Virus genome (UHGV): UHGV-0123951
Length of the DNA: 36,881 nt
DNA from: a virus
Direction: 5' to 3' (one strand)
Position numbers and translations under genes: made by a program. Below the pieces are notes generated by a model that worked only from the letters and a program-made list of their open reading frames with translations, made no database searches and was not told where the DNA came from. Below are positions 4,108-17,861 of the stretch, one piece after another (position 1 is the stretch's first letter; each line of letters starts with the position of its first letter).

Positions 4108-4764
4108 TTATAAATCCATTATTACTTGTCTTACTAATCCTACCAATCGGCAGTTGCCATTGACTTCTAAAGTCCTGTAATTGGGGTTAAGAGGTACTAG
4201 GTATTTCAGCGGCCCATCGATGACGAACTTTTTAATAGTGGCTTCATCACTGCCCATAAGCTGTGCAATAACAATTTTACCATTAGCTTGACTGGCATCA
4301 CCAAAATCAGGTTCTACAACGACAATAGAACCTTCGGGAATACTTGGTGCACCTGTAGGGTTGGTCATCGAGTCGCCGCGAACAATGAGTGCAAATGCAC
4401 TTTCAGAAACGGCAGCCGAAGTATAGACCCAGTCATGAATGTCCCGCTCTGTGATCGCTACGCAATTGGCCGTCCATTCCCCGGCCTGTACCCATGTGAG
4501 AACGGGAACTGACCTAATTCCGAATCTTTGCTCCGGGTCCATAGTTGGTGGCTGCTGACTTCCATCATCCTTTCCATCCAGTAACCACTGCGGTGTCTTT
4601 TCTAATGCAGCCGCAAGCGCCTGGAGGTTTTCACCACCCGGTTTGTAGTCACCGGATTCCCAACCGGTGATAGTGACGCGATTAACCCCGACGAGCTTTG
4701 CCAGGACGGATTGCGTCATCTTTAGCTCTTTTCGTCTGCTTCGGATTCGATCATTCATTTTCAT
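4108..4764 (-). CDS. cI: cI-type prophage repressor, HTH plus S24 LexA-like autopeptidase domain
   Basis: HTH (MTQSVLAKLVGVNRVTITGWESG), candidate Ala-Gly cleavage site (VQAGEW), Ser/Lys dyad (GDSM ... KKF); start set at MKMND (4764) because the track extension to 4842 runs through the operators. Confidence 0.8.
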   Translation of the reverse strand: MKMNDRIRSRRKELKMTQSVLAKLVGVNRVTITGWESGDYKPGGENLQALAAALEKTPQWLLDGKDDGSQQPPTMDPEQRFGIRSVPVLTWVQAGEWTANCVAITERDIHDWVYTSAAVSESAFALIVRGDSMTNPTGAPSIPEGSIVVVEPDFGDASQANGKIVIAQLMGSDEATIKKFVIDGPLKYLVPLNPNYRTLEVNGNCRLVGLVRQVIMDL

Positions 4765-4826
4765 GTAGGTAATCCTACCATTATCTGATGTAGGAGTGCT
4801 TGACCAATCAATGTAAGATATCCTAC
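4765..4826. promoter_or_regulatory. OR operator cluster (GTAGGTAATCCTAC 4765-4778; GTAGGAGTGCTTGA 4790-4803; GTAAGATATCCTAC 4813-4826)
   Basis: Near-palindromes with consensus GTAGG-N4-CCTAC between divergent cI and cro. Confidence 0.55.
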
Positions 4827-4829
4827 TAT
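4800..4829 (+). promoter_or_regulatory. PR-like promoter (-35 TTGACC, 18-nt spacer, -10 TACTAT)
   Basis: Hexamers overlap operator 4813-4826; cro RBS GAGGG and ATG follow. Confidence 0.45.
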
Positions 4830-4863
4830 CAGTGCACTGCATTACTTAACTCCAGAGGGAAAA

Positions 4864-5089: not shown

Positions 5090-5641
5090 GTGGGTAACGA
5101 ACCTGTTTGGAAAGTCGAACGTCAGCCAGCCTGGCTGGTGGCCGCGATAAAAAAAACGATCACCGATCTACCTGGTGGTTATGCCGAGGCGGCGGAATGG
5201 TTGGGTGTGACAGAGAACGCATTGTTTAACCGCCTTCGTGTTGACGGCGATCAGATCTTCCCGCTGGGCTGGGCAATGGTTTTACAACGTGCTGGTGGTT
5301 CAACTCATATCGCTGATGCCGTTGCGCGCCATTCTCAGGGCGTATTTGTACCGCTGGCAGATGTTGATGATCTGGATAACGCCGATATCAACCAGCGCCT
5401 GATGGAGTCCATCGAATGGATAGGCCGTCATTCTAATTTTGTACGTAAAGCCACGGCTGATGGGGTGATTGACGCAGATGAGCGCGCTCAGATTGAGGAA
5501 AACAGCTATCAGGTTATCGCGAAGTTCCAGGAGCACGTAGCGCTTCTTTATCGAGTTTTTTGTGTCGCTGAAAAGAGTGACGCCCGCGAGTGTGCAGCTC
5601 CGGGCGCCTTGGCGAACAACTCTTCGAGTATGGAGAAATAA
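5090..5641 (+). CDS. CII-like / phage early regulatory protein (183 aa)
   Basis: Track ORF with GTG start, immediately after cro; family assignment by position and size only. Confidence 0.4.
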   Translation: MGNEPVWKVERQPAWLVAAIKKTITDLPGGYAEAAEWLGVTENALFNRLRVDGDQIFPLGWAMVLQRAGGSTHIADAVARHSQGVFVPLADVDDLDNADINQRLMESIEWIGRHSNFVRKATADGVIDADERAQIEENSYQVIAKFQEHVALLYRVFCVAEKSDARECAAPGALANNSSSMEK

Positions 5642-5982: not shown

Positions 5983-6849
5983 ATGAGCACTAAATTAACC
6001 GGCTACGTATGGGATGGTTGCGCGGCGTCGGGCATGAAGTTGTCTAGTGTCGCGATCATGGCCCGTCTCGCTGATTTCAGCAGCGATGAGGGTGTGTGCT
6101 GGCCGTCCATTGAAACTATTGCTCGCCAGCTTGGCGCAGGGCCGAGCACTATCAGAACGGCAATCGCAAAGCTTGAAAAAGATGGCTGGCTCACGCGTAC
6201 ACAGCGCCGTAATGGTAACCGTAATGCTTCGAACGTGTACCGCCTGAATGTGGCGAAACTTCAGGCTGCCGCATTTTCTCAACTGTCAGATTCTGACACG
6301 TCAAAATCTGACGCATCAAATTTTGACGCCTCAAAAACTGACCCGTCGAAATCTGGCAAAAAAGGCGGTTTTGACCCGTCAGAATCTGGCGGGGATCCGT
6401 CAGTAAAATCAAAACAAGATCCACAAGTAACTTCAAAACCCTCTTGTCCGGTTGCGGCGCAACCCGACCCTGAGGTTGTGATTACTGATCAGGCCAGACA
6501 GGTTTTGTCTTACCTGAACCAGACAACTGGTTCACGCTACCAGGTATGCAGCACGTCGCTGGAGAACATTCGCGCCCGTCTGCGGGAACAGTTCACTGTT
6601 GATGATCTGTGCCTTGTGGTGGATTACAAAAACGCTGATTGGCGTGATAGCGAGCAGGCTCAATACCTCCGCCCGGCAACTCTGTTTATTCCAAAAAACT
6701 TCCCCGGTTACCTGCAAAGCGCGACCAAATGGTCTGCCGCTGGGCGACCTGAACGCGTTAACGGTAAATGGGCGACTAACTCAGCCAGCCGCGCCAACTT
6801 CCAAAATGTTGACTATTCACTGCCAGAAAATTCGGGGTTCCGCTCATGA
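5983..6849 (+). CDS. replication initiator (lambda O-like), origin iterons embedded
   Basis: N-terminal HTH-like region; tandem repeats inside the ORF; GGGAGA RBS. Confidence 0.65.
   Translation: MSTKLTGYVWDGCAASGMKLSSVAIMARLADFSSDEGVCWPSIETIARQLGAGPSTIRTAIAKLEKDGWLTRTQRRNGNRNASNVYRLNVAKLQAAAFSQLSDSDTSKSDASNFDASKTDPSKSGKKGGFDPSESGGDPSVKSKQDPQVTSKPSCPVAAQPDPEVVITDQARQVLSYLNQTTGSRYQVCSTSLENIRARLREQFTVDDLCLVVDYKNADWRDSEQAQYLRPATLFIPKNFPGYLQSATKWSAAGRPERVNGKWATNSASRANFQNVDYSLPENSGFRS
6283..6405. repeat. tandem ~15-bp iterons (TCAAAATCTGACGCA-like): candidate phage origin
   Basis: At least 5 direct repeats with inverted-repeat cores (CGTCA...TGACG) encoding an S/D/K-rich linker. Confidence 0.55.
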
Positions 6850-8168
6850 TGCCAAATAAATATTGCCAGGCGCTGGCAGAACTGCGCAGTAAACCAGCTC
6901 ACGAATTGAAAGAAGTTGGAGATCAGTGGAGGACACCTGATCTGCTTTTCTGGGGGATCAACGCGTTATTTGGCCCATTAGTTCTGGACTTGTTTGCTGA
7001 CGACGACAACGCGAAATGCCCGGCATGGTACACCGCCGAAGATAACGCGCTGACCCAGGACTGGTCTGAACGTCTGGCAGAACTGGGTGGTGCAGGTTAT
7101 GGCAACCCACCGTATAGCCGTTCGCAGTACCACGAGAAACAGGCGATCACTGGTATGACGCACATCATGAAGTACGCAGCAGCCCAGCGCGAGAAGGGCG
7201 GTCGCTATGTATTCCTGATAAAAGCCGCGCCAAGTGAAACGTGGTGGCCGGAAGATGCCGATCACATTGTATTCATTCGCGGGCGCATTGGGTTCGATCT
7301 GCCAGTGTGGTTTGTACCTGCTGACGAAAAACAGAAGCCCACCAGCGCGTTTTTTGCCGGTGCCATAGCTGTATTCGATAACTCATGGCGTGGTGAGCGG
7401 TTCAGCTATATCAACCGTACTGAACTGGAGGCAAAAGGGCGGGCGTTTATGACTTTGGCGCAATTTGCTGCCAGCAAGTCTCAACCTGCAACTGCCATAC
7501 CATCTGTAGCTGACAAGCCAGAAGCAGAGTTGCCACTTACCCAGAAAGATATTTTTGATATCAGCGGTGTCGAGGCGTGGGCATGCGTTAGAGCTGCGTT
7601 CGGCGATAAAGAAGAATACACATTCAGTGAATCGAAGTTTGGGCATACCTGGGCGGCGGATTCTGTCGAAGCACCGGAATTCACTCAGGTATCACCATTA
7701 ACGATCGACAAAGCGAAGCTGCTTATTCGTGAGAGTATTTTGTTCGGTGTGGATGAGTGGCTGTTGTCGATTGAATTCGATGACGCTGCTGCGCGCCTGG
7801 ATATGTCGGAACGTATTCGTACTGTTGCCCTCGAAGCATCTGGTGAATATGGCATGAACAGTACTGATTTCATTGCAGCTATGGGAAGCCTGGATGTTTC
7901 CAGTTGGTCCAATATTCGCCAGATCCGCATGCACATCCGTGAGAAAGCTAAACCAGTATCGGATCCGCTTCCCGAGTCCCGTATCTGGCCGCTGGAGGTT
8001 GGAATTGTATTCGACCAGGTAGACGGCGCTGACATGCTGGATGAATCACAGCAGAACAAGCTGAAAGCCAACATCAATCAACTCTGGCTGGAACGAACGG
8101 CCACCAGCGAAATCATCACAATTGCGCGTGGTCTTGTCGGCAGCATGCAGGGGGTAACCCATGCGTGA
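6846..8168 (+). CDS. phage Dam-family N6-adenine DNA methyltransferase with ~250-aa C-terminal extension (440 aa)
   Basis: N-terminal domain with NPPY motif (GYGNPPYS); long extension of unknown function. Confidence 0.75.
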   Translation: MMPNKYCQALAELRSKPAHELKEVGDQWRTPDLLFWGINALFGPLVLDLFADDDNAKCPAWYTAEDNALTQDWSERLAELGGAGYGNPPYSRSQYHEKQAITGMTHIMKYAAAQREKGGRYVFLIKAAPSETWWPEDADHIVFIRGRIGFDLPVWFVPADEKQKPTSAFFAGAIAVFDNSWRGERFSYINRTELEAKGRAFMTLAQFAASKSQPATAIPSVADKPEAELPLTQKDIFDISGVEAWACVRAAFGDKEEYTFSESKFGHTWAADSVEAPEFTQVSPLTIDKAKLLIRESILFGVDEWLLSIEFDDAAARLDMSERIRTVALEASGEYGMNSTDFIAAMGSLDVSSWSNIRQIRMHIREKAKPVSDPLPESRIWPLEVGIVFDQVDGADMLDESQQNKLKANINQLWLERTATSEIITIARGLVGSMQGVTHA

Positions 8169-9978
8169 GATTATTGTTGATAACTTTGCTGGTGGCGGTG
8201 GCGCATCAACGGGTATTGAACTGGCGATCGGGCGCAGCGTGGATATTGCGATCAACCACGACGAAAACGCCATTGCGATGCACAAGACGAACCACCCGGA
8301 CACACTGCATTATTGTGAATCCGTTTTTGACGTGGATCCGGTAGCTGCCACCGGCGGTAATCCTGTCGGCCTGGCATGGTTTAGCCCGGACTGCCGACAC
8401 TTCTCGAAGGCAAAAGGCGCAAAGCCAGTGAAAAAAGAGATACGCGGTCTGGCCTGGATTGTTCTGCGTTGGGCACTGGCAAAGCGACCGCGCGTGATGA
8501 TGCTGGAGAACGTGGAAGAGTTCAAAACGTGGGGACCGCTGCTGGCCGATGAAATGCGTCCGGATCCTGCCCGCACTGGCGAAACATTCAATGCATTTGT
8601 CGGCATGCTGTCCACTGGCATTCCTGCTGATCACCCGGCACTGGCTGAGGTTTGTGAGTTTCTGTCTATCGAAAGAGGTAGCGAGCAGGCGCAAAAGCTG
8701 GTGGATGGGCTCGGATATGATGTTGATTATCGCGAACTACGCGCGTGTGATTACGGCGCGCCGACGATCCGCAAACGCTTCTTCATGGTTATGCGTTGCG
8801 ATGGTTGCCCAATCCAGTGGCCTGCTGTTAGCCATGGGGATCCTAAGTCGCTGGAGGTGCAAAGTGGCAGGCTGATGCCATGGCGTACCGCTGCGGAATG
8901 TATCGACTGGAATGTTCCGGCCCTGTCCATCTTCGACCGCAAAAAACCGCTGGCGGAGAACACTCTGAAGCGGATCGCGCGCGGCATACAGCGCTTTGTT
9001 ATCGAAAGTGCGTCGCCGTTTATCGTGAAGTGCAATCACACCAGCACCAAAACGAGTTACGACTGTTTCCGCGGTCAGAAGCTGGACGAGCCTTTGCAAA
9101 CTATTACTAAAACCCACGGTTACGCGTTAGCTGTTCCACATCTGACAAAATTCCGCACTGGCGCAACCGGGCAGCCCGTTACCGAACCTGTCCCGACGGT
9201 AACCGCTGGCACATCAAAACGTCCGGGTGGGAATGGGCATGCTCTCGGGATTGTTGAGGCTGCACTAACACCATTTCTGGCGGGTAATGGTGGTAGTGAA
9301 TACCAGGCTAAACCGCGCCCGCTGGATAAACCTGCTCATACCATTCTGAAGCAATCCCGCGCCTGTCTTGTTGCGCCAGTGATAGCCCGCCAGTTTGGGG
9401 CCAGCGTCGGCCACCGGGCAGACGAACCGAGCGCCACAATTACAGCTGGTGGTGGCGGTAAATCACAATTGGTGGGCGCGTTCCTGGCGAAACACTACGG
9501 CGGTAACTATACGGGGCCGGGTGTCAGTATGGATGAACCCGCGCATTCAGTGACCACTGTCGACCATCATGCGGTAGTTGCCTCTCATCTGGTGAAACTG
9601 CGTGGAACATGCCGCGACGGGCAACGCCTTGATGTGCCAATGCCAACAATCACCGCTGGTGGCCAACACGTGGGTGAGGTACGCACATTTCTCGAGACGT
9701 ATTGCGGGGAAAGTGACGATGAATGGCTGGTAACGATCGATGGGGTTAAATACCAGATCGTTGATATCGGAATGCGCATGTTGCAGCCGCATGAACTCTA
9801 CAAAGCGCAGGGCTTCCCGGATGGTTACGTTATTGATCAGGACTACCGTGGAAATCTCTATGCAAAAGATAAGCAGGTAGCCCGCTGCGGTAATGCGGTA
9901 CCACCACCATTCGCCAGGGCGCTGGTGGAGGCAAATCTTCCGGAACTGTGTGCAGTGCAACAGCAGGAGGTGGCATGA
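8161..9978 (+). CDS. DNA cytosine-5 methyltransferase (605 aa)
   Basis: Motif I DNFAGGGG, Cys motif SPDCRHFS, ENV motif MMLENVEEF, C-terminal GNAVPPP; overlaps the Dam gene by 8 nt. Confidence 0.75.
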   Translation: MREIIVDNFAGGGGASTGIELAIGRSVDIAINHDENAIAMHKTNHPDTLHYCESVFDVDPVAATGGNPVGLAWFSPDCRHFSKAKGAKPVKKEIRGLAWIVLRWALAKRPRVMMLENVEEFKTWGPLLADEMRPDPARTGETFNAFVGMLSTGIPADHPALAEVCEFLSIERGSEQAQKLVDGLGYDVDYRELRACDYGAPTIRKRFFMVMRCDGCPIQWPAVSHGDPKSLEVQSGRLMPWRTAAECIDWNVPALSIFDRKKPLAENTLKRIARGIQRFVIESASPFIVKCNHTSTKTSYDCFRGQKLDEPLQTITKTHGYALAVPHLTKFRTGATGQPVTEPVPTVTAGTSKRPGGNGHALGIVEAALTPFLAGNGGSEYQAKPRPLDKPAHTILKQSRACLVAPVIARQFGASVGHRADEPSATITAGGGGKSQLVGAFLAKHYGGNYTGPGVSMDEPAHSVTTVDHHAVVASHLVKLRGTCRDGQRLDVPMPTITAGGQHVGEVRTFLETYCGESDDEWLVTIDGVKYQIVDIGMRMLQPHELYKAQGFPDGYVIDQDYRGNLYAKDKQVARCGNAVPPPFARALVEANLPELCAVQQQEVA

Positions 9979-10361
9979 AACTTGTGCTCCCGTTCCCTCC
10001 GAGCGTGAACACGTACTGGCGCGCCCCTAATAAGGGGCCGCTGGCCGGTCGTCACCTCATTAGCGCTGATGGTCGTAAATACCAGAGCGCTGCCTGCGTG
10101 GCGATCATTGAGCAATTACGACGTCTCCCGAAGCCATCGACTGAACTGGCAGCGGTAGAAATCACTCTGTACCCGCCGGATGCGCGCCGCCGGGATATCG
10201 ATAATTACAACAAAGCCCTGTTTGACGCGCTGACGCATGCGGGTGTCTGGGAAGACGACAGCCAGATTAAGCGCATGCTGGTGGAATGGGGACCCGTAGT
10301 GCCGAAAGGTCGGGTAGAGATAACGATCAGCAGATATGAACCGGCGGGTGCAGCCGCCTGA
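9975..10361 (+). CDS. rusA: RusA-family Holliday junction resolvase
   Basis: MKLVLPFPPSVNTYW ... RRDIDNYNKALFDALT pattern typical of RusA; ATGA overlap with the methyltransferase stop. Confidence 0.8.
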   Translation: MKLVLPFPPSVNTYWRAPNKGPLAGRHLISADGRKYQSAACVAIIEQLRRLPKPSTELAAVEITLYPPDARRRDIDNYNKALFDALTHAGVWEDDSQIKRMLVEWGPVVPKGRVEITISRYEPAGAAA

Positions 10362-10374
10362 TATGGAGAAAAGT

Positions 10375-11058
10375 ATGAGCCAGTTAGCAACAACAGCATT
10401 AACCATGTCCAGCAGCGATATTGCTGAGCTGGTGGAATCACGACATGACCATGTTAAACGGTCCATTGAACGCCTGGCAGAGCGCGGTGTTATTGAACTC
10501 CCCCCAATGGGGGAAGTTAAAAATCACCTCAATCAGTCGGTATCGGTTTATCTGATAGGGAAGCGGGACAGTTATATCGTTGTCGCGCAGCTGTCGCCGG
10601 AGTTTACCGCGCGTCTGGTTGATCGCTGGCAGGAGCTTGAGCAGGCACAGCAGCAGACGATTCCTCAATCATTCTCTGAAGCCCTACGTCTTGCAGCTGA
10701 CCTTGCAGAACAAAAACAGCAGTTGACTAACGAACTGGCTGCCGCGGCGCCGAAGGTAGCGTTTGTTGATCGGTACTGTACAGCCAGTGGGTCAATGTCA
10801 TTCCGCCAGGTGGCAAAACTGCTTAAGGCCAAAGAGCCAGATCTGCGGTTATTCCTCCTTGAGAACGACATTATGTATCGCCTTGGCGGAACGATGACCC
10901 CACGGCATCAGCATATTGATGCGGGCCGTTTTGAAGTGAAAACCGGCACATCCGTAACCTCAAATCATGCATTCAGCCAGGCACGTTTCACGGCGAAAGG
11001 CGTGCGCTGGATTGGTGGACTGTGGGCAGAACACATTGCCAGGGGGCAGGTCGCGTGA
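10375..11058 (+). CDS. Rha-family regulator with KilA-C/antirepressor-like C-terminal domain
   Basis: N-terminal Rha-like segment (SSSDIAELVESRHDHVKRSIERL); start moved to ATG 10375 with GGAG RBS. Confidence 0.65.
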   Translation: MSQLATTALTMSSSDIAELVESRHDHVKRSIERLAERGVIELPPMGEVKNHLNQSVSVYLIGKRDSYIVVAQLSPEFTARLVDRWQELEQAQQQTIPQSFSEALRLAADLAEQKQQLTNELAAAAPKVAFVDRYCTASGSMSFRQVAKLLKAKEPDLRLFLLENDIMYRLGGTMTPRHQHIDAGRFEVKTGTSVTSNHAFSQARFTAKGVRWIGGLWAEHIARGQVA

Positions 11059-12050
11059 GAGCTCTGCTTACCCCCGAGATCGCCCATCGTATGGGGATTG
11101 TGTTGTTCCGTCCTGGTGCGGAACTGATGCACCTCTTCATGCGTGGTCGCGTTCTGCTCGAGCCTGAACCAGAAGAAATGGCGTCATTCAGTACCGGGGC
11201 TGTTCCGGCAGCCATTCAGCCGCTGACTGATGATCCGGTAATGCGTCAGGTCTTCGAGAATGAGAGGGTTATTCAGCGTGCCGGTGGGATTTCTTCCCTT
11301 GAGCAATGGTTGAGTAATCGGTTTGAATGCCAGTGGCCACATTCATCGTGGCACGACAAGAACTTCACAACAATGCGGCACCCACCAGGAAGTATTCGCC
11401 TGTGCTGGCATTGCGATCACACTTTGTCGGGGCAGCATACCGAACAGCTTGCAGGTATAGCGGCCGGAAACCTGGTATCCTGGATTCTGGAAGTCATTCG
11501 GCGTGATTCTGGTTTTCCCGAGTCGCATATCCTGACGCTTCCGGAACTGTGCTGGTGGATGGTCAGAAACGACCTGGCTGATATTATTCCGGAAAGCGTT
11601 GCGCACAAAGGGCTGCGCCTTCCGGATGAGAAGATCCGTTCTGTCATGAGGGAAAGCGACATAGTGCCTTCCTCGTCAGCAACCAGACTCGTTCAGGAGA
11701 AGGCGAAGAAGATCCTCACGCTCTCTGTTGATCCAGAGTCGCCAGAGTCTTTCATGCTCAGGCCAAAGCGACGCCGCTGGATAAATGAGACGTACACCCG
11801 CTGGGTTAAAACACAACCCTGTGAGTGTTGCCGACGGCCAGCAGATGATCCGCACCATATCGTAGGGCACGGTATGGGTGGTACAGCAACAAAAGCCCAT
11901 GACCTCTTCGTGATCCCTCTGTGCAGAGAGTGCCACGATGAGTTACACGCCGATGTACCGGCATTCGAGCAAAAGCATGGTACGCAGCTTGAGCTGCTAC
12001 TGCGTTTTATGGATCGGGCGCTGGCGATCGGCGTAATTGCGACAGCTTAA
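11055..12050 (+). CDS. DUF968-like phage protein with Cys/His cluster (YdfU-like)
   Basis: C-terminal CECCRRPADDPHHIV ... CRECHDELH motif; GTGA overlap with upstream stop. Confidence 0.55.
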   Translation: MRALLTPEIAHRMGIVLFRPGAELMHLFMRGRVLLEPEPEEMASFSTGAVPAAIQPLTDDPVMRQVFENERVIQRAGGISSLEQWLSNRFECQWPHSSWHDKNFTTMRHPPGSIRLCWHCDHTLSGQHTEQLAGIAAGNLVSWILEVIRRDSGFPESHILTLPELCWWMVRNDLADIIPESVAHKGLRLPDEKIRSVMRESDIVPSSSATRLVQEKAKKILTLSVDPESPESFMLRPKRRRWINETYTRWVKTQPCECCRRPADDPHHIVGHGMGGTATKAHDLFVIPLCRECHDELHADVPAFEQKHGTQLELLLRFMDRALAIGVIATA

Positions 12051-12066
12051 GAAGTATGGAGACCGT

Positions 12067-12897
12067 ATGAATCTGGACAATGTTTTAAAGTTTTTTGCGC
12101 CTAAAGGCATGCACATCTCAGATACCAGCAGAGCGACAGCAAGTGAGCAACTTACTGTGACTGATGTAATGGCGGCACTGGGGATGACTCAGGCTGATGC
12201 GGGCATCGGGCTGGCAATGTTTCTGGGTAAAGCTTGTATCAGCAGCCAGGACAGGGAGGCGTCAATTGCCTGGCTAACGGAGTACGCGAAAGAGCATGCT
12301 CCCATGGCTATTCGTAAAGCATCAGGGAAAAAGTTTCCCCTCTGCATGCGTATCCTTGCCCGGTTTGCCTATAACGATTATTCCTCATCAGCAGCTGATT
12401 GTGTGGCATGCCCAAAATGTAGTGGTAAAGGGTTGCTTACAACCACTAAAACCGTGACTAAAAGCCATTACACAATGCGATTGCCACAATGGGCAAAAGA
12501 CCTGAGACAGTCACCATCTGACTTTGAGGTTAAGCGCGATGTAACTGACACTGATCATACGTTATGTTCCCGCTGCCATGGCACCGGAAAGTTAAGTAAG
12601 CGATGCCAGTGCGGCGGCACAGGTAAGACTATTGACCGTAAAGCGACAGAACTGCAGGGCGTACCGGTTTACAAAGAATGTAAGCGCTGTGAAGGTCGGG
12701 GATACAGCAGGCCAAAATCATCGGTTGCCTATCGCGGTGTTTTTTCCGAGTTGCCCAGTCTGCCAGACCGGACGTGGCGTTATAGCTGGAAACCATTCTA
12801 TGAAATCTTGGTGACCAAATGTTTCCAGGAGGAGAGTTATTCAAGTTCTCAACTGAACCGGGTGACTAAAAGTGAAGATGTGATAAATATCGCGTAA
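12067..12897 (+). CDS. Q-like late-gene antitermination protein
   Basis: Multiple CxxC zinc-finger-like motifs; sits directly upstream of the late promoter/terminator and lysis cassette; start at MNLDNV with GGAGAC RBS. Confidence 0.65.
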   Translation: MNLDNVLKFFAPKGMHISDTSRATASEQLTVTDVMAALGMTQADAGIGLAMFLGKACISSQDREASIAWLTEYAKEHAPMAIRKASGKKFPLCMRILARFAYNDYSSSAADCVACPKCSGKGLLTTTKTVTKSHYTMRLPQWAKDLRQSPSDFEVKRDVTDTDHTLCSRCHGTGKLSKRCQCGGTGKTIDRKATELQGVPVYKECKRCEGRGYSRPKSSVAYRGVFSELPSLPDRTWRYSWKPFYEILVTKCFQEESYSSSQLNRVTKSEDVINIA

Positions 12898-15481: not shown

Positions 15482-16939
15482 ATGCAGGTCACTATTGATG
15501 GTGTCCCGTATTTGCCTGCCTGTGCTTCAGCGTCACGGATTGGCATTGCGATTACCACCCACAACCGGGCGGACGTTTTAAAGCGTGCTGTTGAGCAGCA
15601 CCAGAAGCATCTGCCAGCCGGTGCGCTGCTGGTGGTTGTCGATGATGGTTCAAAACCTGCAGCGATAGCACCCGACGGCGTGCAACTGCTTCGCCATGAA
15701 ACATCACTCGGCATTGTTGCCTCGAAGAACGCCAGCCTGTCAGCCCTGATGGATGTCGGGTGCGAGCATCTGTTTTTATGGGATGATGATGCCTGGCCCA
15801 TCGCCGATAACTGGCATCTTCCCTACATCGAATCACCAGAGCCGCACCTGGCTTACCAGTTTCTGGATCTGGCTGGTCGCAATAAGCTGAACGACATGGC
15901 GGAGCTGTACCGTGATGATAAGCATGTTGCTTACACTGGTCAGCGCGGGGTGATGCTTTACTACCACCGCAGCGCCATCAAGAAGGTTGGCGGATTCGAT
16001 CCGGTATACGGTCGCGGCATGTACGAGCATCCCGATCTGGCGCTTCGGATTCACAACGCTGGTTTAACGTCGTGGGCGTTCGCTGATGTAGTTGGCTCTG
16101 AAAAGCTGATTCACTCAATGGACGAGTACGAAGAGGGCGTGCGCTCAATACCACGGCCTGACCGAGAGGCACTGGTAAAAAGAAACGTTGGCATCTTCAA
16201 CGCTCGACGCGACAGCGGTTATACAGGCTTTGCCTCGTACAGCAGAAATCCAAATCTAGTGATTACGACGCTGCTCACAAGCCAGCCAGACCCACAGCGA
16301 GGCAGGAAGATGAAACCCGACCCGCAGGCTCTTCAGGCTTGGGCAGATTCAATATCCGGCGCGCTGCCGATTGTCCTGGCTGACGAATTAAAAGAGTCGC
16401 CAACTGGCGCCGGTCTGTTTGAAGTCCCGCCGTTGGGCATGAGCCCATACTTTGCTCGCTGGCTTCACATCTATCAGTATCTTCGTGCCCACCCTGAATA
16501 CCATCTTGTCTGGTGTACTGACGGGACAGACGTTGAAATGCTGCGTGAGCCTTGGGCAGAGATGGCGCCGGGTAAAATTTACGTTGGCTCCGAGCACAAA
16601 ACCTACTTTGACGAATGGATGAAGGACAATCACCACGGCAAAGCTTATAGCGAGTTCTTCGAACTGCACCGGGATGAGCAACTGCTTAATGCTGGCCTGA
16701 TTGGTGGCTACCGTGAAGATGTAATGGAGTTCGCCCACCGGATCATCCGTCAGCATTACCTTATTGAAAGCCACCGCTTCTGGAAGATGGAAGCAGCTCC
16801 CGCCACGCTGGTGGACATGGGCGCTTTCGGGATGGCTGCAAAGTCATTCGGTAATCGAATCGTTACCGGCCCTCTGGTGCATACCATCTTTAAAACGGAT
16901 GGCTTCGGAAAGGAGACCGCATGGTGGAAACACAAGTGA
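15482..16939 (+). CDS. family 2 glycosyltransferase with ~250-aa C-terminal domain of unknown function (485 aa)
   Basis: GT2 signature (IAITTHNR ... LLVVVDDGS ... WDDDAW); no obvious membrane spans; GGAGAA RBS. Confidence 0.7.
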   Translation: MQVTIDGVPYLPACASASRIGIAITTHNRADVLKRAVEQHQKHLPAGALLVVVDDGSKPAAIAPDGVQLLRHETSLGIVASKNASLSALMDVGCEHLFLWDDDAWPIADNWHLPYIESPEPHLAYQFLDLAGRNKLNDMAELYRDDKHVAYTGQRGVMLYYHRSAIKKVGGFDPVYGRGMYEHPDLALRIHNAGLTSWAFADVVGSEKLIHSMDEYEEGVRSIPRPDREALVKRNVGIFNARRDSGYTGFASYSRNPNLVITTLLTSQPDPQRGRKMKPDPQALQAWADSISGALPIVLADELKESPTGAGLFEVPPLGMSPYFARWLHIYQYLRAHPEYHLVWCTDGTDVEMLREPWAEMAPGKIYVGSEHKTYFDEWMKDNHHGKAYSEFFELHRDEQLLNAGLIGGYREDVMEFAHRIIRQHYLIESHRFWKMEAAPATLVDMGAFGMAAKSFGNRIVTGPLVHTIFKTDGFGKETAWWKHK

Positions 16940-17511
16940 AGTATGTTGTGATTGGTCACCATTCCCGCTATGCCTCAGCTGCATTGCTGGCTGGCGAACT
17001 TGGCGCACACCTGCTTATCGATGAAGGGAATCACGGTGCGAACTGGAATCACCGGCGCGCTATCGAATGGGCTGCTGAGCAACCTTGCCGGGTAGTGGTG
17101 CTGGAAGACGACGCGCTGCCTGTACGTGGATTCAGAGACAAGATTACGGGCTGGCTGGCTCGTTTCCCTGGCGACATGCTTAGTTTTTATCTGGGCACTG
17201 GGCGGCCACCGCAATACCAAATGCAGATAGCTGAACGCCTGATTAATGCGGATAAGGTGAGGTCTGACTTCATTATGCTGCAACGCCTGATACATGGCGT
17301 GTGCTACAGCATACCGCCTCAAAGCATCAGCCGTGTGCTGTCTCAATGGGACTGCAGTAAGCCTGCCGATTATGCCGTGGGCGATGCTTATGGTGGCGTT
17401 GTCGTCTATCCCTGCTGGTCGCTGGTGGACCATGCAGACGGCGAACCGGTTGAGCGTCACCCTGACTCAGCTCCACGAACAGAACGCCGCCGGGCGTGGA
17501 GGTTAGCCTGA
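16921..17511 (+). CDS. hypothetical protein, possibly GT-A-like (196 aa)
   Basis: VVVLEDDALP segment resembles a DxD-type motif; AGGAGA RBS; overlaps the glycosyltransferase stop. Confidence 0.45.
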   Translation: MVETQVKYVVIGHHSRYASAALLAGELGAHLLIDEGNHGANWNHRRAIEWAAEQPCRVVVLEDDALPVRGFRDKITGWLARFPGDMLSFYLGTGRPPQYQMQIAERLINADKVRSDFIMLQRLIHGVCYSIPPQSISRVLSQWDCSKPADYAVGDAYGGVVVYPCWSLVDHADGEPVERHPDSAPRTERRRAWRLA

Positions 17512-17861
17512 TGCCTGCGTTAATACCGAGAGCATGCCGCAAGCGTGGCTGCCCTGGCACAACCACTGACCGCTCAGGCTATTGTCCCAAGCACCTTAAC
17601 GAAGGCTGGCAGCAGCATCAGCGAGGACAGAGCAGGCATCAGCGAGGTTATGGCAGCAAGTGGGACAGGCTGCGCCCAATCGTTCTCGACAGAGATAAAC
17701 ACCTTTGTCAGGAATGCCTGCGAAATGGAAGGTATACACCCGCTGAGACGGTGGACCACATCACCGCCAAAGCAAATGGGGGGACCGATGACCTGTCCAA
17801 CCTCGAAAGCCTCTGCAAGCCCTGCCACAGGGCAAAGACAGCGGTCGATAGGCTCAAATGA
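17511..17861 (+). CDS. HNH endonuclease (terminase-associated)
   Basis: Cys/His HNH pattern (CQECLRNG ... HITAKANGG ... NLESLCKPCH); GGAGG RBS; directly upstream of terminase genes. Confidence 0.8.
   Translation: MPALIPRACRKRGCPGTTTDRSGYCPKHLNEGWQQHQRGQSRHQRGYGSKWDRLRPIVLDRDKHLCQECLRNGRYTPAETVDHITAKANGGTDDLSNLESLCKPCHRAKTAVDRLK

Follow-up and report, generated by a model that had tools for sequence, protein, structure and literature searches.

The 36,881-nucleotide (nt) viral genome UHGV-0123951 (here the window, meaning the whole stretch of DNA analysed) is a lambdoid prophage in which a Dam-type N6-adenine methyltransferase gene overlaps a C5-cytosine DNA methyltransferase gene, and it raises the question of why a phage should keep two such enzymes, each with a large extra region, where no restriction gene is present. 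The answer that we consider probable, if by no means secure, is that the two genes form a coupled, restriction-less DNA-modification cassette, consisting of an active Dam enzyme and a multi-target C5 enzyme, with the C-terminal tail of the Dam protein acting as a partner of the C5 enzyme and the whole serving an anti-restriction role. This reading is drawn from the observed gene structures, motifs, repeats, cassette polymorphism, module distribution and gene linkage. The parts of the pair are as follows.

6846..8168, plus strand: Dam-type N6-adenine methyltransferase fusion gene, 440 amino acids (aa)
6846..7490, plus strand: Dam catalytic domain, aa 1-215 (PF05869, TIGR01712), with NPPY at 7104-7115
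7509..7979, plus strand: all-helical insert, aa 222-378, delimited by alignment with relatives and by AlphaFold2 (AF2); not in the common 293-aa Dam
7980..8165, plus strand: tail, aa 379-440, delimited by matches to phrog_16025 and to the C-terminus of phrog_111
8161..8168, plus strand: Dam/C5 overlap of 8 nt, ATGCGTGA, the Dam stop lying over the C5 start
8161..9978, plus strand: C5-cytosine DNA methyltransferase of the phage S-P-D/E-C clade, 605 aa
8383..8394, plus strand: motif IV, S75-P76-D77-C78, with the putative catalytic Cys78; Asp replaces the usual Pro before Cys
9046..9696, plus strand: six tandem target-recognition-like units, aa 296-512, architecture ACABAB

The C5 enzyme and its unit array

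A sequence-only reading of this DNA had assigned the downstream gene to the C5-cytosine methyltransferases, and the assignment is borne out by PF00145 (73.1 bits against a cut-off of 22) and by the C5 motifs, which occur in canonical order: FAGGGG at aa 9-14 (motif I), ENV at 116 (VI), RKRFFM at 204 (VIII), RMLQPHE at 539 (IX) and GNAV at 577 (X). About 330 aa separate motifs VIII and IX. This variable region holds the six tandem units, anchored at T314, T346, T394, T426, S463 and T496 and sharing the core pattern (D/E/K/V)-P-x-x-T/S-(I/V)-T/L, in short form DEPxxT(I/V)T. Ten of the 15 unit pairs reached a z of at least 3.5 against shuffles, and a hidden Markov model (HMM) of the unit detected each of the six (independent E-values 1e-13 to 6e-20). 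The unit sequences fall into three superclasses with a regular A/B alternation, and each unit type carries an invariant signature, for example GGGGKSQL, TVDHH or AGGxHxGEV. Scans of the variable region against Pfam and PHROG returned no functional family.

The array varies by whole units. Among 121 close relatives of the C5 protein (at least 75% identity), length differences are clean whole-unit insertions or deletions: U3 (35 aa) is present in 92, an extra 39-aa unit (X1) in 41 and an extra 36-aa unit (X2) in 28, and U2 is missing from one protein, P0108. A wider set of 225 Enterobacterales relatives has 5-10 units in 24 architectures, the ACABAB order being common to 42 others. Natural variants that are one unit apart include ACBAB (P0054), ACABBAB (P0019) and ACABAAB (P0099). 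Arrays with differing numbers of units are found as well in distant homologues from Aeromonas, Roseburia, Pseudomonas and Gordonia phages.

In temperate phages of Bacillus, several target-recognition domains arrayed in one polypeptide protect against many systems (PMC12707154). The multispecific Bacillus enzymes (M.SPRI, M.Phi3TI, M.Rho11sI, M.H2I) likewise consist of one core with an enlarged VIII-IX region, are encoded by phage-borne orphan genes and carry, like the enzyme here, tandem units of ~35-45 aa with a P-x-x-T-(I/V/L)-T core, the number of which varies between related phages. The SPR, rho11s and H2 enzymes have 3-4 units of the form 'S/A-P-T-L/I-T-T', and their element DEPAFTVNTIDRHGVA resembles unit U5, DEPAHSVTTVDHHAVV. 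The Bacillus enzymes differ in having 3-4 units and an SPCQ motif IV, whereas six units (5-10 in relatives) and SPDC are found here; the C5 enzyme here also belongs to phages of Gram-negative hosts and has a small accompanying element, and its specificity is one that we only infer. The array architecture together with its modular polymorphism fits a multispecific enzyme, and on this comparative analysis the array most likely gives several or relaxed target specificities. The earlier guess at a multispecific target-recognition region thus gains comparative support from the six repeats, the gain and loss of whole units and the motif-level likeness to Bacillus enzymes, but not from unit homology, which is not significant.

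Motif IV had been singled out in the sequence-only reading as a PDC in place of the usual PCQ. The PDC is indeed present; it is not an oddity of this gene, being conserved in a large clade of phages of Proteobacteria, Firmicutes and Actinobacteria. The stretch F-S-P-D-C-R-H-F-S aligns to PPCQxFS of PDB 3g7u, with Cys78 matching the PPC cysteine, and S75, P76, D77 and C78 are invariant in 61 relatives. The form S-P-(D/E)-C-(R/K/T)-(H/N) is conserved in distant phage homologues, with D changed to E in the Gordonia phage, and used as a search pattern it recovered at least 597 viral contigs. Judged from this conservation, P-D/E-C appears to be a clade signature under selection and not a lesion.

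Several results weigh against a multi-target, active C5 enzyme. The unit HMM matched the experimentally defined Bacillus target-recognition domains with an independent E of 0.14, which is not significant; a determined specificity for any member of the C5 clade was not found in the literature searched; and the AF2 model of the C5 enzyme (61-sequence alignment) has a mean predicted local distance difference test score (pLDDT) of 45, with the whole unit array below 50, so that it lends no structural support. Moreover, units U1 and U3-U7 are conserved, in the same order, across the very distant homologues of Aeromonas, Roseburia, Pseudomonas and Gordonia phages; with most units so deeply conserved, a single repeat-built DNA-binding domain fits equally well. 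The variable region could then be one large recognition or DNA-clamping domain with a single, very short or relaxed specificity (e.g. a dinucleotide), in which unit number tunes affinity or reach and the units are not independent recognition domains. The restriction to three superclasses in regular alternation and the lack of a significant Bacillus match speak for such a domain, and non-specific adenine methylases of phages are known (PMC7556043; M.EcoGII, PMC12707154). Whole units are, however, gained and lost at 75% identity or more with undisturbed flanks, as reported for the independent recognition domains of Bacillus phages (PMC12707154), and every unit type has a signature of its own; we regard the single domain as possible, on balance doubtful. 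A further alternative, that the C5-like protein is catalytically inactive or performs a different chemistry, starts from the Asp that replaces the near-universal Pro before the catalytic Cys, a substitution for which we know of no characterised precedent, and from the NCBIfam dcm superfamily model, which scores 54.2 bits, below its cut-off of 100.65. We think it very unlikely, as the other catalytic motifs (FxGxG, ENV, RxR, IX and X) are intact and the strong conservation of S-P-D/E-C in hundreds of diverse phages points to a functional site.

The Dam domain, its insert and its tail

The upstream protein is a Dam-family N6-adenine methyltransferase with NPPY motif, as had been recognised from the sequence alone. 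The PF05869 profile covers aa 19-199 with 147 bits (cut-off 28.1; E=5.5e-43), the NCBIfam equivalog TIGR01712 (phage_N6A_met) scores 205.9 bits against a cut-off of 97.05, and the NPPY catalytic motif is found at aa 87-90. The catalytic domain shares 74% identity with the Dam of Stx2-converting phages, and PMC7556043 names the cloned VT-2 phage Dam, along with further phage Dams, as Dam-like (Gm6ATC) enzymes, so that the Dam here is most likely GATC-specific. It shares with the phage Dam family (T1, P1, HP1, VT-2/Stx) the catalytic domain, the NPPY motif, the orphan state and the position in the prophage early region, and differs from it by a helical insert of ~155 aa, present in only about 20 clusters of Dam proteins, and by a tail that is a separate gene in other prophages.

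Dam-family proteins are often annotated as 'phosphoadenosine phosphosulfate reductase', apparently via phrog_33262; examples are Flotzy (L004 2674-4008), ST64B sb44 and phage Chi gene 52. The sole domain of the Flotzy protein is PF05869 Dam, to which the same extension as in the Dam here is added. The label, which the present analysis corrects, looks like a propagating mis-annotation.

What had been described as an unrecognised C-terminal domain of ~250 aa is a real extension, but not one domain: it is made of a linker and two separable modules. In alignments with relatives the usual 293-aa Dam consists of the core, a short linker and a ~62-aa tail, and the Dam here has an extra ~155 aa (aa ~222-378) placed between core and tail. 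AF2 modelled the core poorly and the insert and tail as confident helices (pLDDT 70-90). Nor is the extension unrecognised as a whole, the tail being part of the ordinary phage Dam (phrog_111) and, elsewhere, a separate gene tied to C5. Searches of Pfam, PHROG function labels, PDB sequences and folds identified none of the extra domains as a well-characterised module.

The tail is matched both by phrog_16025, a family of 85 residues, and by the C-terminus of phrog_111. A scan of species-representative genomes gave 49 tail loci, at 43 of which a C5 homologue lies directly downstream. The tail is a free-standing open reading frame (ORF) of ~85 aa at 22 of these loci, is fused to Dam at 20 (5 with the insert) and to a phrog_954-type methyltransferase at 7. 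The linkage was also counted from the C5 side, in 73 assessable C5-bearing IMG/VR contigs, by asking for a tail end within -40 to +60 nt of the C5 start: the tail is directly upstream in 68 (24 free-standing, 29 Dam-fused, 15 fused to something else), and the five contigs without it hold the most divergent C5 proteins. An annotated free-standing copy of ~85 aa occurs in Klebsiella phage 5 LV-2017, another free-standing protein of 85 aa is encoded at locus L035 (3929-4189), and in Pectobacterium the tail ends an unrelated phrog_954-type methyltransferase that overlaps the C5 homologue by 4 nt. No tail was found beside the distant C5 homologues of Aeromonas, Roseburia, Pseudomonas and Gordonia phages.

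The fused and free tail forms, although only 32-44% identical overall, have 13 invariant columns in common, and AF2 gave the tail a confident three-helix fold (pLDDT 72-88). Tail proteins had no match in Pfam, and the tail profile found nothing significant among PDB sequences, the best match being the C-terminus of E. coli SbcD (aa 346-385, E=0.69). The C-terminal region of SbcD is a helix-loop-helix that docks onto SbcC, which, the match not being significant, is a mere lead for a docking role. Because the tail is either free-standing or fused to various upstream genes, and lies beside C5, a Rosetta-stone fusion is the simplest reading: the tail would be a small partner of the C5 enzyme that has been repeatedly fused to whichever gene lies upstream.

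The insert has the core motif LPLTxxDI..SGVEAWAC..AAFG.K.EYTFSESKF.HTWAADS and is rare, with 22 clusters among 1.84 billion representatives in an exhaustive HMMER search. The ten clusters whose domains were scanned are either Dam proteins or phage ParB-like proteins that carry the module as C-terminal domain, and 160 further loci gave 132 Dam contexts and 24 ParB-like ones. Pfam, PHROG, PDB profile and fold searches with the insert matched no functional family or known fold. The ParB-like proteins (phrog_1033; Pantoea phage AH07 gp48) share the insert at 41% identity over 140 aa, and their genes occupy the same slot between O-like gene and rusA as the Dam here; unlike the Dam, they have an N-terminal ParB/helix-turn-helix (HTH) part in place of the methyltransferase domain.

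At the AH07 locus (L013 5001-7075) the gene joining ParB and module lies between the O-like gene and rusA, the slot of Dam and C5 in the window, and overlaps a DpdA-like tRNA-guanine-transglycosylase gene (phrog_887, E=8e-97); the two may form a 7-deazaguanine DNA-modification pair. The pairing recurs at one further locus only (L210). The insert was also considered as a marker of DpdA/DpdB-like 7-deazaguanine systems and rejected: a DpdA-like neighbour is present at only 2 of the 24 loci with ParB and module, most being directly followed by rusA, and the DpdA link is therefore incidental.

Proposed function of the pair

The orphan status claimed for the two genes is upheld. PHROG, Pfam and PADLOC scans found no restriction endonuclease among the neighbouring ORFs, PADLOC labels both genes as methyltransferases only, with no endonuclease partner, and the neighbours are the O-like initiator, RusA, Ant, DUF968 and Q, an arrangement that lacks the adjacency of a type II restriction-modification system. 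The 8-nt overlap of Dam and C5 suggests translational coupling, and an AGGGGG Shine-Dalgarno-like run lies upstream of the C5 start.

Upon induction, both enzymes would methylate the replicating phage DNA before packaging, and the progeny DNA would carry protection against several restriction systems when it enters the next host. The Dam domain would contribute N6-methyladenine (m6A), most likely in GATC, and the C5 enzyme would be an active 5-methylcytosine (m5C) methyltransferase, its six-unit array conferring several or relaxed specificities. The tail would probably dock onto the C5 enzyme or regulate it, so that m6A and m5C activities are tethered, and the insert, probably, would act in targeting or protein interaction rather than catalysis; the extra region of the Dam would have arisen by gene fusion. 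Protective 'Trojan horse' modification, i.e. anti-restriction, is the standard reading of orphan phage methylases (PMC12707154). Anti-restriction self-protection by the pair is plausible.

A relevant comparison is Dmt of phage P1, in which a PF05869-type m6A domain and a C5 domain are joined in one polypeptide; here they are two ORFs in different frames with the 8-nt overlap. The fusion of Dam and tail may achieve a Dmt-like coupling non-covalently. Of the 17 phage records with a tail element, none was P1-like.

Other observations count against a protective, physically coupled cassette. At 6 of the 49 tail loci, and likewise in E. coli 1943/Nissle and ST64B, Dam and tail occur without a C5 gene, and the adjacency of tail and C5 could reflect inheritance as a mosaic block instead of a physical interaction. 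In addition, m5C can expose a phage to McrBC-type restriction. The tail might then be a passive relic, the 5' flank of a mosaic recombination block made of tail and C5, with no partnership at the protein level and supplying, for example, only translational coupling and a ribosome-binding site. Start/stop overlaps of 4 or 8 nt at every junction are what such a flank would show, as is the persistence of the tail beside rusA where the C5 gene is missing. A mere flank is harder to reconcile with the protein-level conservation of the 13 invariant columns in forms so divergent, with the confident three-helix fold and with the retention of the tail in frame on three different upstream contexts, and we hold it to be unlikely. 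It is also conceivable that the pair serves phage physiology, whether in Dam-dependent packaging as in P1 or in the control of replication, lysogeny or gene expression, with the insert recruiting Dam to the origin or replisome. We consider a physiological role improbable, and we retain the coupled anti-restriction cassette as the probable reading.

Operon context, distribution and significance

The lambdoid prophage, of a Citrobacter-like host, carries the cassette in its early (replication/nin) operon, in the order O-like initiator, Dam, C5, RusA; the nearest C5 proteins come from Citrobacter, at 98% identity. The surrounding genes are listed below.

4108-4842, minus strand: CI-like repressor
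5090-5641: CII-like gene
5983..6849, plus strand: O-like replication initiator (HTH_36 and Phg_2220_C), directly upstream of Dam and outside the methylase pair
9975..10361, plus strand: RusA-like resolvase gene, the downstream module boundary
10336-11058: Ant
11022-12050: DUF968/HNH gene
12037-12897: Q, followed by lysis, terminase and head genes
17496-17861: HNH gene, beside the terminase genes

Both methyltransferase ORFs and their overlap lie exactly where the sequence-only reading had placed them. At the O/Dam junction the end of the initiator gene and the beginning of Dam share 4 nt (ATGA). At the C5/RusA junction the likely RusA start codon, ATG at 9975, likewise shares 4 nt (ATGA) with the end of the C5 gene, and an AGGAGG precedes it at a distance of 4 nt. 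With overlaps of 4, 8 and 4 nt at the O/Dam, Dam/C5 and C5/RusA junctions, the four genes look translationally coupled. The RusA ORF was listed from a GTG at 9948 (9948-10361); the ATG at 9975 is the likelier start and yields MKLVLPFPPSVNTYW, as in relatives.

As Dam directly follows the O-like initiator (5983-8168), no lambda-P-like or DnaC-like helicase-loader gene is present before the nin-type genes; a related Pectobacterium prophage (locus L009) does carry DnaT and Phage_lambda_P genes. The idea that the Dam extension replaces a lambda-P-like helicase loader is speculative, supported by neither sequence nor fold. Between the lysis cassette and the HNH and terminase genes, two overlapping glycosyltransferase-like genes (15482-16939 and 16921-17511) occupy a moron-like position; their PHROG matches are to phrog_1579 (E=8e-226) and phrog_854 (E=1e-70), and Glycos_transf_2 matches the first one weakly.

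The methyltransferase pair is not rare: as a module it is widespread among the lambdoid prophages of Enterobacterales. Searches with the C5 protein gave at least 8000 scored relatives, from Citrobacter, Salmonella, Enterobacter, Klebsiella, Kluyvera, Pectobacterium, Serratia, Yersinia and others. The same 8-nt overlap joins a 293-aa Dam to a 575-aa 'met' in Citrobacter phage phiNP, a 444-aa Dam to a 645-aa C5 enzyme in Escherichia phage Flotzy, and a 292-aa Dam to a 644-aa C5 enzyme in Salmonella prophages, and YE2361/YE2362 of Yersinia enterocolitica are an overlapping pair of Dam and putative Dcm (PMC10742451). The pairs of phiNP, Flotzy and YE2361/YE2362 resemble the one here in being two-gene modules with overlapping frames at the same operon position. 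In contrast to the Dam here, those of phiNP and Salmonella (292-293 aa) have no insert, and the C5 proteins of phiNP, Flotzy and Salmonella (575-645 aa) differ from the C5 here in unit architecture. Experimental characterisation of members of the phiNP, Flotzy and YE2361/YE2362 pairs was not found in the literature searched. The prophages of E. coli 1943 and Nissle 1917 have a 439-aa Dam that abuts rusA with no C5 gene, and their Dam genes are 95-97% identical in nucleotide sequence to the one here.

The description of both enzymes as unusually large therefore applies in comparison with the Pfam models (169 and 324 positions) but not within their own prophage families, in which C5 relatives range over 570-731 aa and Dam is commonly 293 aa, with a minority of ~400-444 aa; with a module this common, as the number of relatives and the Yersinia pair attest, 'unusual' overstates the case.

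Some related loci show other arrangements. A Pectobacterium prophage (loci L009/L010, 9571-10605) has a second PF00145 methyltransferase, of ordinary size (344 aa), ~2.6 kb downstream of the large C5 homologue. The 405-aa protein P0135 joins the Dam core and insert to the last ~90 C5 residues (motifs IX and X) and is not a full fusion but evidently a deletion derivative, from which the tail and the greater part of the C5 gene have gone. At four loci (L019, L033, L042, L062) only C-terminal C5 fragments lie downstream of the tail, which suggests that in resident prophages the C5 gene has repeatedly decayed or been disrupted.

The gene pair as such is already known, with annotations in thousands of genomes. 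In the literature searched we did not find the division of the Dam extension into its parts, the tight two-way linkage of tail and C5 or the cassette architecture of the C5 variable region. More speculatively, and with considerable reserve, phages with the S-P-D/E-C motif, i.e. Enterobacterales prophages and a much wider clade, may encode an uncharacterised class of highly multispecific m5C methyltransferases with 5-10 swappable cassettes, equipped in Enterobacterales with a dedicated adaptor of ~85 aa that is often fused to an upstream m6A methyltransferase, giving a tethered dual-modification machine.

Phage C5 methylases of enteric bacteria are largely uncharacterised despite their presence in thousands of genomes, because single-molecule real-time (SMRT) sequencing detects m5C poorly. 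Through the tail element a new accessory subunit of DNA methyltransferases may come to light. Should several specificities be encoded in the unit array, it would be a compact and evolvable 'master key' against many restriction systems, which would bear on phage host range, on phage therapy and on horizontal gene transfer among Enterobacterales, and it would offer a natural kit of swappable recognition modules for methylase engineering.

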